DNA of 64,000 bases from Mustelus asterias (Eukaryota): contig NW_027590119.1 of assembly GCF_964213995.1 (NCBI RefSeq), positions 2,790,001 through 2,854,000 of the forward strand, written 5' to 3'. Shown piece after piece: positions 1,783 to 64,000 of this stretch. The notes under the pieces are model-generated. The model searched no databases, had not been told where the DNA came from, and was given only the letters and a program-made list of their open reading frames with translations. The stretch's first letter is position 1. Each line of letters starts with the position of its first letter. Both the position numbers and the translations under genes were made by a program.

Positions 1783-2457
1783 ATGGAGAAACCGTGGAAA
1801 TGTGCGGACTGTGGGAAAAGATACAGAGCCCCATCTCTGCTGGCAGCTCATCGGCGCAGCCACACTGGGGCGAGACCATTCACCTGCTCTCAGTGTGAGA
1901 AGGGATTCATTCAGTTATCCAGTCTGCGGACACACCAGCGAGTTCACACTGGGGAGAGGCCATTCACCTGCTCTGAATGTGGGAAGGGATTCACGCAGTC
2001 ATCCCACCTGCAGACACACCAGCGAGTTCACACTGGGGAGAGGCCCTTCACTTGCTCTCAGTGTGGAAAGGGATTCATTCAGTTATCCAGCCTGCAGAGA
2101 CACCAGCGAGTTCACACTGGAGAGAGGCCGTTCACCTGCTCTCAGTGTGGGAAGGGATTCACTCAGTTATCCAGCCTGCGGACACACCAGCGAGTTCACA
2201 CTGGGGAGAGGCTGTTCACCTGCTCTCATTGTGGGGAGGGATTCACTTGTTCATCTACCCTGCGGACACACCAGCGGGTTCACACTGGGGAGAGGCCATT
2301 CACCTGTTCTCAGTGTGGGAAGGGATTCACTCAGTTATCCAGCCTGCAGAGACACCAGCGAGTTCACACTGGCGAGAGGCCGTTTACCTGCCCTCAGTGT
2401 GGGAAGGGTTTCAGCGTTTCATCCCGGCTGCTGAGACACCAGCAAGTTCACGAGTGA
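1783..2457 (+). CDS. G1: C2H2 zinc-finger protein, 8 fingers (ends QQVHE)
   Basis: 8 x 28-aa CxxC..HxxxH repeats with TGERP linkers; ATG in actATGg; putative acceptor ttttacag ending 1431. Confidence 0.9.
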
Positions 2458-2699
2458 TTCCAGAGGTTGGATTCTGCTGTTATTGTTTCTGCTCTCAGTG
2501 GCATCCAGGACTGTATTTTGTTCATTCTCACAGTTGGTCAAAGGGAAGGGTCAGAGGGTTTCTTTGTGCTGGACTGGCCGGTCTCAGTCTCCAGTGGGCT
2601 GATGTTCTTTGAGTCTTTTTGCGAATACCTGGTTTCAAATGTCACAAGGATCACAGAGTGACAGGGTGTTAGGAAGTTTAGAGATATTTAGTCAGAAGA

Positions 2700-3760
2700 A
2701 AACAGAGGTTGGCAGTGCAAAGGTACATTTCTGAATGGAGGGCTGTGACAAGTGACATTCCTCAGCGATCAGTGCTGGGACTTTTGCTGTTTGTAATATA
2801 TATAAATGATTTGGAGGATAATGTAACTGGTTTGATTGGTAAGTTTGTGGACGACACAAAGGTTGGTGGAATTGCGGATAGCGATGGGGACCGGCAGAGG
2901 ATACAGCAGGATATAGATCAGTTGGAGACTTGGGCGGAGAGATGGCAGATGAAGTTTAATCCGGACAAATGTGAGGTAATGCATTTTGGAAGGTCTAATA
3001 CAGTTGGAAATATACAGTTATTGGCAGAACCCTTAAGAGTATTGCTAGGCAGAAGGATCTGGGTGTACAGGTACACAGGTCATTGAAAGTGGCAATGCAG
3101 GTGGAGAAGGTCGTCAAGAAGGCATACGGCATGCTTGCCTTCATCGGCCGGGGCATTGAGTTTAAAAATTGGTAAGTCATGTTGCAGCTTTATAGAACCT
3201 TAGTTAGACCGCACTTGGAATCTAGTGTTCAATTCTGGTCACCATAGTACCAGAAGGATGTGGAGGCTTTGGAGAGGGTACGGAAAATATTTATCAGGAT
3301 GTTGTCTGGTGTGGAGGGCATTAGCTATGAGGAGAGGTTGGAGAAACTTGGTTTGTTCTCACTGGAACGACGGAGGTTGAGGGGGGGCGACCTGATAGAA
3401 GTCTACAAGATTATGAGGGACATGGACAGAGTGGATAATCTGAAGCTTTTTCCCAGGTTGGAAGAGTCAATTACTAGGGGGCATAGGTTTAAGGTGCAAG
3501 GGGCAAGGTTTAAAGGAGATGTACCAGGCAGGTTTTTTACACAGAGGGTGGTGGGTGCCTGGAACTCGTTGCCGGGGAAGGTAGTGGAAGCAGATATGAT
3601 AGTGACTTTTAAGATGTGTCTTGACAAATATATGAAACGCATAGGAATAGAGGGATATGGTCCCTGTAAAGGGAGGGGGTTTTAGTTCAGACGGGCAGCA
3701 TGGTTGCTGCAGGCTTGGAGGGCCAAAGGGCTTGTTTCTGTGCTGTAATTTTCTTTGTTC
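2700..3760 (+). mobile_element. 5'-truncated CR1 LINE (RT C-terminal half and 3' tail)
   Basis: PQRSVLG, KFVDDTK, FNPDKC, RGDLIEVYKIM motifs; same insertion at the same site after G7 (44690-45730). Confidence 0.9.
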
Positions 3761-3894
3761 TTCGTTCTGTTTGGAACATCCCAAATGGCCATCCAATTTC
3801 CTTTTTAATTGTTTATTGTCTCCACTTCCTCCACCCTCTTAGGCAGCGAGTTTCAGGTCATTACCATTCGCTGCATCAGAATATTCTTCCTCAC

Positions 3895-3975
3895 ATCTCC
3901 CCCCCACCCCCCCCTCCCCCCTCCCCCTCCCCGCCACTACCCCCCCCCCCCACTCCTCCCCCACTCCTCCCCTTG
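3895..3975. repeat. C-rich low-complexity tract
   Basis: Runs of C with interruptions inside an old CR1 tail fragment. Confidence 0.8.
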
Positions 3976-4345
3976 CATCTCTGACCCAAAACCATAAATC
4001 TGTGTGCCCCCCTCGTCCTTGTCCCATCAGCTAAGGGAACAGCTTTTCTTTGTCCACCTTATCTAAACCTGTCAGAATCTTGTCCACCTCGATCAAATCT
4101 CCCCTCAACCTCCTTTTCTCCAAGAGGAACAAGCCCAGCCTGACATCGACAATAAAGCACAAAGTAACAGAATATGTTAATACCTGAAATCAAATGGGAA
4201 TGTTTAATTTCTGTTTTAAAGATATTGTGAATATATTGTCCTGGACAATAAAGGAATTGGAATAACTCACCTTGGGTGTGGTTGAATGGAATATATCAAT
4301 CTGATATCCACCTGCAGTCCAGTGAAAGTCTGGAATATGTAGCTG

Positions 4346-61051: not shown

Positions 61052-61648
61052 TGTTATGGTGAAATTAAAATAATGGACACAAAATGGTTACCTGGCACAC
61101 AAAATGGACTCTGGGAAGGGACATTAAAAGGCACTGGCTTTGGGCACAGACAGTTACACAAAGAGTTAAAACCTGCAGTATCTGAATTGCTGCAGGAAGC
61201 TGGTCAGACCTGGGGCACTTTAAGACTTGAGATAAGAGCAGACCCAGAACAATGAGTTTGATGATAAGATCCGCCACTGATGGGGACATAAATACATAAA
61301 TGTATATATCGAAACCAGTCATTGATAGAGGACATAACTGCATAAATGTATCCATTCTATGTATAATGATGTGTTAACTGTCCATGTCCGTACCTGTCTG
61401 CTTGTAACAATGTGTTAATTGTCGATGTCCGTATCTGTCTACTCAACTTGTAACGATGTGTTAACGGCTAATGTCCGTACTATCTATTGTCTAAAAGATA
61501 TAAAGATGCTCAACTACCATTGTGTAGTTGAGAAGGTCGCTGCCAAGTACTGCGGAGTACCAGTGCTTTCTCCCAAAGCTTTGTCCGAAATAAAACTGTT
61601 TTGTTGAACCTCCAAGTCTGACTCCGAAGTGGTAAATTTCCCACAACA
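61052..61648 (+). mobile_element. Probable solo LTR
   Basis: TGTTA...CAACA ends, imperfect TSD caac/caag, TATAAA ~61499, AATAAA ~61589, interrupts a CR1-type tail. Confidence 0.6.
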
Positions 61649-63004
61649 CAAGACAAACAGATCAGCCATGATGTAAATAAATGCTGGAGCAGACTCAAAG
61701 GGCCAAATGGCCAACTTCTGCTCCGATGTCGAATGTTGGTCACAGATTTCTGAGAATTGTGAAACAAGGCTGGAAGATTCGCCTTGCTTGTGTTCGTGGG
61801 AAAATGTCCAGGAGAACCATCACTGTGAAGGACAGTTCTGGGATTAAAGGTTGCCAGACTGGAAAAGGAAAACAATGGAAATAAACTCTTGGGGAGTGAA
61901 AAATCACCTTGGACTCATTCTTGGAGAATTGAGTGTCAACATTCCAAGATGGAATAAAATATAACCATTGAGTGCGACATTTGATGGTGTTAAGAGTAAA
62001 AGGGCAAAGTTCAATTTTACAGTTTAAGGGTTATGTTCCCTACAAAAAAGTGTTTCGTCATTGTTGCTTCCAGTTTGTTGGAGTAGAAGTCATAAAACTT
62101 GAAGTTTTGTCATGTGATTCTTTGATTTACACATTGAGTTTAGAATTCATTTCTTTAAATTACTGATCATTACAGAGATCCTAATAATTCATTCAAAGCC
62201 CTGTGTTTTGACTTCCCATTTGAGCCTGGGGCACCTTTCTGTCTCTCTATTGCTCGTGTCAATGACAGCCAGGCGACGGAGCTGAGGGCTGAATTTAGCT
62301 GAGAATAATGAGGCCTGCGCCCCAGTTGGGAAACTGCAATGTATGTTGCAGTAATCGAGAGACAGGAAGGTGCTGGAGGACTGAGTGAGAAATGGGCCTC
62401 CAACCAATTGTTATATCGGTCACTCAGAGCTAAAGAGAAACTCGTCTCTTTAAATACATATACAGGGAAGAGGCTGCAATGAAATCTGCCCCTTTTAACA
62501 CGCACAAAAGCTGGAGGATGAGATTGGCAGGCTACAGGAGGACTCCATTCAGCCCATCATCCTCCTGCTATCTCTTTGAAAGAACTCTCTGATTCACCCA
62601 ACTGCACTGTTCTTTCCCCAAATTCTTCCCACTCAAGTCTTTACCCTTTGGAGGTAAACTATTGAATCTGCTTTCAGGCAGATCAGAACAACTCACTGTG
62701 TCAAAAAATAAAATCTCATCTCCCCCTCTGGCTCCTTTGCCAATTACCTTTGAGGGACTCACTTTCTGTTAAAGAGCCTGCCAACCCCTCTCACCCACTT
62801 TCCCTAAAGTGCATCAATCTCATCAGGAAAAGTCCAGAAAAATCAAATATTTTTACTGATAAAAGTTTATTAATGAAACAGAACATGGTTAAAACAAACA
62901 GAAAATGACTTGAGGATCAAAGACAACCAGAGTAAAAGGATGTTCACAATGTTCTGGACACAAATGGTTTCTCTTTAATTCATCTGTAGCCTGTTCCCTG
63001 CCCT

Positions 63005-63625
63005 CTTTGTGGAACACCTCCGCTCAATCCACAAGCATGACCCTGACCTTCCGCTTGCCATTAGAATTCACCACCTTGCTCTCACACTCACATTTCTGTC
63101 CTCGGCCTGCTGCAATGTTCCGGAGAAGCCCAACACAAGCTGGACAAACAGCCCCTCATCTTCCGATGAGGCACTTTACAGCCTTCTGGACTCAACATTT
63201 AGGTCAACAACTTCACACCCTGAACTCTCTCCTCCATTTTGATTTGTTGTTTTTTGCCGAGTGCCAGTCTACACCTTGTTTTCATGTATTTTTGCTTCCA
63301 GACAGAGCTGTCCTTTATTCTGCCATTAACACTTACTCTGGACCAATGCTTTGTTTCTTTACCACAACCATTACCTCTCCCTTTGCCTTGGGTTCCGGGA
63401 TATTTTTGTCATTTAATCTCACCCACCCCCTAACCAATTCCTGACTTTCCCTTTTGTCCTACCTGACCCTACCCCCTTTCTCACCAGCATCAAACCCATC
63501 ACATTTCTCCCTCTCTTTAGTTCTGAAGTAGAGTTACATTGGACGTGAAACATTAACTCTGTTTCTCTCTCCACAGATGCTGCCAGACCTGCTGTGTTTT
63601 TCCAGTTCTTTCTGTATTTATTTTT
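63005..63625 (+). mobile_element. Old Penelope-like element 3' end (second family)
   Basis: EHLRSI..HDPDLPLA, HISVLGLLQC, LIFR*GTLQPSGLN; decayed CTGAAG..GAAAC motif ~63523-63555. Confidence 0.7.
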
Positions 63626-63889
63626 GATCTACCTGTAGTGATAGGAAAAACACTATTTACTATCCCAGAAAAATAAATGTCCTTCATCAGCTTTTGTGGA
63701 TCAGTTCAGTGGAAATGTGCTCTCCCAGGCTCAAAGAGCATCAGCCCACTGGAAGCAAAGTTGTGCGACCGGCCAGTCCAGCAGAAAGAACCTCTCCGAC
63801 CCTCTCACTTCACCAACTGTCAGAATGAACATGGTTCAGTCCTGGATGTGATTAACAGCAGCAAGAACAGCAGAATCCAACTCCTGTCA

Positions 63890-64000
63890 TCACTTATGAA
63901 CTCGCTGGTGTCTCAGCAGGGATGTTGACTGAGTGAATCCCTTTCCACACACAGAGCAGGTGAATGGTCTCTCCCCAGTGTGAACTCGAACGTGTACCTG
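63890..64000 (-). CDS. G10: 3' end of a C2H2 ZNF gene (ends QRVHK), cut by the window edge
   Basis: [32 protein letters not shown]; 3' flank homologous to G2. Confidence 0.85.

Follow-up and report, generated by a model that had tools for sequence, protein, structure and literature searches.

A 64,000-nucleotide stretch of the Mustelus asterias genome (RefSeq assembly GCF_964213995.1, contig NW_027590119.1, positions 2,790,001 to 2,854,000; hereafter the window) contains ten C2H2-type zinc finger (ZNF) genes, G1 to G10. We consider it likely that these genes belong to a large family encoding fingers only, whose recurring unit is a back-to-back gene pair on a short promoter-like segment firing in both directions. 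The head-to-head pair on one shared promoter is a real, family-wide unit; transcription of both flanking genes from the principal type of segment, here termed class I, is likely on the strength of its motifs.

Six-frame scans recovered ten C2H2 finger arrays in the window, on strands + - + - + - + - + -, and the strict alternation described in the initial annotation was borne out within these limits. The predicted proteins begin with a MEKPWKC-like sequence and contain only fingers joined by TGERP-type linkers. PF00096/PF13465 scored far above cut-off in all eight ZNF proteins scanned (all but G8 and G10), and the Pfam hits shown for these eight (the best 25 per protein) comprised finger-type families only, with no KRAB domain among them. 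In-frame stops lie shortly upstream of the ATG, within exon 2, and therefore no upstream effector exon can join in frame. Donors were taken as GTGAGT, and exon 1, being deduced from donor motifs, is a prediction. Exact matches across the 3.68 Gb genome number at least 2,067 for the start motif and 791 for the donor motif, and the genome is predicted to hold about 2,000 finger-only C2H2 genes.

Each divergent pair in the window encloses one GC-rich segment, as previously proposed, and the outward-facing donors at 13433/13909 and 40413/40966 were confirmed. The class I layout has an NRF1-like centre between two arms, with a donor at each outer end; in arm A a palindromic box whose loop is ETS-like lies between two CCAAT motifs, and arm B is GC-rich. 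Four promoter profiles were built from window seeds, and the contiguous sample comprised six regions (1.37 Mb, 148 arrays of at least three fingers). These regions are not a random sample: of the five outside the window, four had been chosen because ZNF motifs were dense there and the fifth because of a promoter hit. Forty donor-centred stretches, drawn from the first 100 listed places of the exact donor motif, and five paralogues of the G2/G3 promoter were sampled in addition.

Within the contiguous regions, a recognised promoter of class I or class II (described below) occupies 36 of 43 divergent gaps, 31 of them with exactly one, as compared with 2 of the 41 gaps between convergent genes and 23 of the 58 between tandem ones (Fisher p = 2e-14). 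Divergent gaps have a median length of 5.0 kb, against 6.7 and 7.2 kb for the other gap types. Class I clusters number 65, of which 17 are lone donors and 48 bear arms; 37 of the arm-bearing clusters face outward on both sides and none faces inward. Motif occurrences in 55 promoters also exceed those in shuffled sequence (ETS-like, 83 versus 10; NRF1-like, 47 versus 1; CCAAT, 173 versus 64), with NRF1 present in 37 promoters, GABPA/ETS in 49 and CCAAT in 48, the copies not being independent.

Several observations weigh against so simple a reading. No divergent pair forms the nearest genes at 12 of 36 two-sided promoters (24 have one), and only 17 of the 40 sampled donors fall in a two-sided cluster (4 of 20 on two large contigs, 13 of 20 on contig C71); 10 of 15 lone donors in that sample have retroelement sequence on the promoter side. 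The motif counts are not independent, since the profile that found the promoters itself contains the CCAAT and ETS sites and the copies are paralogous. Window cores have a GC content of 0.6-0.7; over the promoters compared, the median CpG observed/expected ratio is only 0.50, versus 0.41 in the background. Arm labels were assigned to genes by proximity. A strict intact-frame test was passed by 46 of 144 arrays, with no clear link to promoter presence (p = 0.19), so that much of the family may be decayed. Finally, 35 of 58 tandem gaps lack a recognised promoter; the arrays concerned could be orphans, users of other promoters, or alternative last exons of one leader. Many downstream arrays in such promoterless same-direction gaps of the six regions retain a splice acceptor.

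No RNA record was listed for window positions 12550-15100. Contigs from five presumed-RNA runs of four other organisms cover the promoter at a likeness of at least 80-85%, and among the 15 joints listed per search, of 182 and 89 in all, none linked exon 1 with exon 2 by GT-AG. An exact protein look-up found none of three sequences.

The class II promoter contains NRF1-like, CCAAT-box-CCAAT and GC-box sequences, and its window copy separates G1 from a gene on the minus strand immediately beyond the window. In 1.77 Mb of sequence, 27 copies were identified at 93-99%, 15 of 25 lying between divergent genes; genome-wide, the 40 candidates scored of 1,800 are all at least 99% identical. The core is 95-99.6% alike in pairwise comparisons of 19 full-length copies, and the flanks fall away within 100-200 bp. 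Compared with the window's neighbour, the 5' region of the left-hand gene at 26 copies is 71-85% alike in 21, 97% alike in one and without a match in four. A core so much more uniform than its flanks and neighbouring genes suggests conversion, strong constraint, or recent spread of one promoter. Neither a poly-A tail nor a target duplication, as expected of a mobile element, was seen by eye.

The pairing might instead be the passive relic of one old head-to-head pair copied often, with most promoters now driving one gene or none. In favour of this, broken arrays are common, G4, G8 and G9 are damaged, exon-1 insertions are frequent and CpG enrichment is low. However, both arms retain their motifs across 55 copies, the class II core has stayed uniform between diverging flanks, and open frames persist in 7 of 10 window genes. 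We therefore regard such a passive relic as unlikely.

The initial annotation described promoter halves as inverted copies of each other and proposed that the cluster grew by inverted duplication through the promoters. Inverted halves are present in part at G6/G7, the most mirror-like promoter of the window (54% covered on inverted self-alignment, at 77-85% identity), and at G4/G5 (26% covered; 58 bp at 86%, across a box that is itself palindromic), but symmetry is not general: mirror copies in G2/G3 are limited to donor blocks (36% covered, chiefly by an 87-bp donor block at 91%), and coverage of G8/G9 is 0%. The 60 two-sided promoters comprise 33 of A-B, 11 of A-A and none of B-B type, 15 with one arm unclassified and one with both; the mirror A-A arrangement is thus a minority form, and the asymmetric A-B the usual one. 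In the six A-A promoters with whole arms, the arms are 77-83% alike and have closer relatives elsewhere at 80-97%, the partner arm ranking only 20th to 60th of 62 as a match. Divergent partner genes are 66-89% alike, with a median similarity percentile of 0.57 over 25 pairs. Since neither mirror arms nor partner genes are mutual close relatives, recent fold-back through the promoters did not build the cluster. The donor block common to both arms does argue for at least one ancient inverted duplication, and the A-A forms are likely old chimeras of A-B. The G4/G5 promoter is likely such a composite, joining a G2/G3-type left half to an inverted A arm: its left half is collinear with the G2/G3 box and centre (13587-13730 versus 30667-30821, plus, 80%), and its right half matches an inverted G2-like arm (13387-13640 versus 31084-30827, minus, 87%).

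A related proposal, that tail-to-tail modules flip or swap at the mirror promoters, is likewise unsupported. An inverted promoter core between matched flanks occurred in none of 25 pairs (three families, 12 promoters; a small sample). The G5-G6 module is paralogous to G1-G2 in inverted orientation. In favour of the proposal, the inverted G2/G5 homology extends to the promoter centre, and one pair changes similarity near the centre; against it, the far edge of the flipped module falls within G6. Of the 171 block ends, promoter/exon-1 zones contain 17 (nominally a 2.1-fold enrichment, p = 0.003) and finger arrays 26 (1.1-fold). At least 7 of those 17 coincide with retroelement insertions; without these most of the excess is gone, leaving about 6% against a background of 4.7%. 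Taken together, fold-back growth with flipping modules appears quite unlikely.

There is evidence for rearrangement of another kind. A block of about 14-15 kb, from the tail of G1 to G3, recurs at 98-99% on four contigs with differing neighbours. Eight of 64 genes were removed because a class II promoter lay in between; a tree of the remaining 56 gene 5' regions required 10 changes of arm label versus 12 when labels were shuffled (37 of 500 shuffles were as low), at least five of them forced by well-supported branches. Arm type is thus distributed almost at random on the gene tree, and gene bodies have been reassorted among promoter arms; G7, for example, is closely paralogous to G1, though the two sit on different promoter classes, and G6 is a mosaic with a 5' region like G2/G3/G5 and a 3' end like G1/G4/G7. 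Nearest-neighbour discordance is about 30% alike at the promoter centre, intron, exon 2 and finger array, on a metric that is noisy with indels. These data suggest that multi-gene blocks were copied and reshuffled, with promoters not established as the hinge.

A history consistent with the shared-promoter reading would begin with at least one ancient inverted duplication, yielding a class I promoter of two outward arms, with the same splice-donor block at their ends and an NRF1-like centre, between genes that each have a predicted non-coding exon 1 and a single coding exon. The cluster has since probably grown through duplication of multi-gene blocks, whether inverted or not, while ectopic recombination or conversion at many shared sequences (introns, finger arrays, repeats and promoters) probably reassorted gene bodies among arms. 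One promoter serving two genes would produce runs of alternating strands, to be broken by deletions, orphan genes and insertions.

Strand statistics in the wider clusters did not uphold alternation as a general property. Of 142 pairs of neighbouring genes, 84 lie on opposite strands (p = 0.036), as do 58 of 101 once the window's contig is excluded (p = 0.16). The longest alternating run is 14 genes, with the window inside it, and other runs span 4-10; of simulated random lists of 2,000 genes, 87% contained a run of 10 and 5% one of 15. The strict alternation is a local maximum rather than a rule. The spacers of the convergent pairs G1-G2, G6-G5 (inverted) and G9-G10 are collinear at 79-92%, in agreement with the shared spacers first reported, but the accompanying pairing of a QQVHE-type with a QRVHK-type gene was rejected as non-significant (10 of 15, p = 0.21).

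That misassembly of near-identical repeats produced this regularity is highly improbable. The window belongs to a contig of 2.96 Mb, and its 98-99% copies to other small contigs, some possibly haplotypes; however, the design is also present on contigs of 20, 74 and 111 Mb, and window paralogues differ by 8-30%.

Of known systems, the silkmoth chorion locus offers the closest parallel (PMC4639761), with divergent A/B and HcA/HcB pairs on a short common promoter, a multigene family with a small exon 1 and a large exon 2, promoters more than 90% alike among copies, and inversions and gene conversion invoked. As there, the unit that recurs in the shark is a gene pair with one promoter between its members. 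Chorion genes, however, encode structural proteins in 44 pairs with fixed A and B partners (PMC4639761), whereas the shark family comprises some 2,000 predicted DNA-binding genes, has the donor block on both arms, and shows no fixed partner class per side, partners being unrelated to arm type; its two-way transcription is a prediction. The arrangement amounts to the paired layout of the chorion genes in a family of transcription factors, and literature searches found no published description of it for ZNF genes.

Human bidirectional promoters mostly join unrelated single-copy genes; here, in contrast, one ZNF promoter family has been copied hundreds of times within one gene family, and CpG enrichment is weak. 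The likeness lies in head-to-head starts within 1 kb and in the motif set, GABPA, NRF1 and NF-Y type motifs being enriched in the human promoters (PMC3082894). Donor-to-donor distances are 335-824 bp in the 36 shark promoters with both donors.

Mammalian KRAB-ZNF genes share the single finger exon, but unlike them the window family is without a KRAB domain. Dense C2H2 clusters and birth-and-death by tandem and multi-gene block duplication are common to both, and the passages on KRAB-ZNF clusters in PMC2443715 mention neither head-to-head pairs nor promoters. Cyprinid FiNZ-ZNF genes likewise represent a lineage-specific expansion of clustered C2H2 genes in fish, but have a coding N-terminal exon; the available portions of PMC10547256 make no mention of orientation, bidirectionality or sharks. 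An N-terminal effector domain on an upstream coding exon, characteristic of both groups, is absent from the window genes. The paired-ZNF-promoter design is not described in the available sections of PMC8455134 and PMC11603059, and a literature search that did not cover most subscription journals yielded no paper on paired ZNF promoters, whether in cartilaginous fishes or in KRAB clusters.

Cartilaginous fishes are reported to have lost KRAB-box families (PMC8455134), yet about 2,000 finger-only genes are predicted here. With a shared two-way promoter, new copies could arise already expressed, and co-expression of neighbours is predicted; a handful of conserved promoter sequences would also provide a handle to assay or perturb the whole family. 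Tentatively, and as a possibility more doubtful than the shared-promoter reading itself, sharks may run up to a thousand head-to-head ZNF pairs from a few conversion-homogenised promoter cassettes, such that any array recombined beside either arm would immediately be expressed in the appropriate cells alongside a new partner. This would be a plug-in system for a fast-evolving family in transposon control, exploited by retroelements that home to exon 1. The clearest hint of such a cassette comes from the class II core.

Table 1. Genes, promoter-like segments and spacer of the window.
Feature	Position	Strand	Description
Class II promoter-like core	1..440		Between G1 and minus-strand gene just outside window
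G1	1783..2454	+	8 C2H2 fingers, open frame, QQVHE end
G1-G2 tail-to-tail spacer	2455..11785		Paralogous to G6-G5 (inverted) and G9-G10 spacers
G2	11786..12625	-	10 fingers, open frame, QRVHK end
G2/G3 class I promoter	13433..13914		Asymmetric A-B
G3	14963..16417	+	17 fingers, then stop and decayed remainder
G4	28470..29561	-	13 fingers, open frame
G4/G5 promoter	30660..31038		A-A type
G5	32012..32851	+	10 fingers, open frame; inverted paralogue of G2, 92% over 2.2 kb
G6	37841..38260	-	5 fingers, open frame
G6/G7 promoter	40413..40971		A-A type; long and short arm, arms 82% alike
G7	43257..44432	+	14 fingers, open frame
G8	52670..53600	-	Finger array decayed: frameshifts and stops
G8/G9 promoter	55602..56850		G8 donor, swollen exon 1, B arm; no mirror alignment
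G9	57180..58190	+	10 fingers, frameshift near end
G10	63893..64000	-	3' end only; open frame runs on past window

The G1-G2 spacer has 98-99% copies on four other contigs. In the G2/G3 promoter a donor is followed by the A arm, with its palindromic box between two CCAAT motifs, the NRF1-like centre, the GC-rich B arm and a second donor. A deletion (junction near 30650) has removed the exon-1 donor of G4 and most of the intron; G9, which reaches its QQVH end only past a frameshift, lacks both a recognised donor and acceptor, and both donors are consequently intact in only two of the four divergent pairs. The G9 side of the G8/G9 promoter is fused to exon-2 sequence, and within exon 1 of G8 an 18-bp unit, derived from the exon-1 sequence itself, has expanded to 41 copies (55625-56384). 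Comparison of G2 with G5 gave a ratio of non-synonymous to synonymous substitution rates (dN/dS) of 0.64, from 30 changes only. A three-finger (252-bp) higher-order unit builds the arrays of G2, G3 and G5 (11801-12465, 15040-16498 and 32245-32836), unlike those of G1, G4, G7 and G9, which are single-finger repeats. A pyrimidine tract, a CAG and another donor of GTGA type follow some 90 bp beyond the main donor (13975-14005, 31100-31130, 41015-41045) and may represent a micro-exon or alternative donor.

At four loci, 97-100% identical "introns" ending at the donor were found on different arms (11 of 12 pairs reported). A swap at the exon-1 donor was considered and rejected; the shared "intron" is a retroelement inserted there with target duplication, and the similarity changes sharply at the donor because this young, non-autonomous element inserts at that site. 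Its copies are 1.2-1.9 kb long and 97-100% alike (contig C87, 2864120-2865990, and 11 more matches in 1.77 Mb), have an AATAAA and an A-rich end, and are sometimes in tandem; some terminate in what we take to be tRNA-like sequence. A Tx1/L1-type long interspersed nuclear element (LINE) with an open reading frame of at least 808 amino acids lies in exon 1 of a G2 paralogue (contig C90, from about 1856190), twice in tandem at 99.8%, and related sequence adjoins nine sampled lone donors. A CR1-type LINE at 18285-21296 in the window contains endonuclease and reverse transcriptase domains with an internal stop, and is missing from the paralogous blocks on contigs C107, C109 and C872. A very abundant short element (442-527, 14106-14356, 31225-31433, 50391-50641, 55057-55260 and 56949-57007) often occurs as an inverted pair forming a hairpin, and in G3 and G5 has inserted at nearly the same place in the intron.

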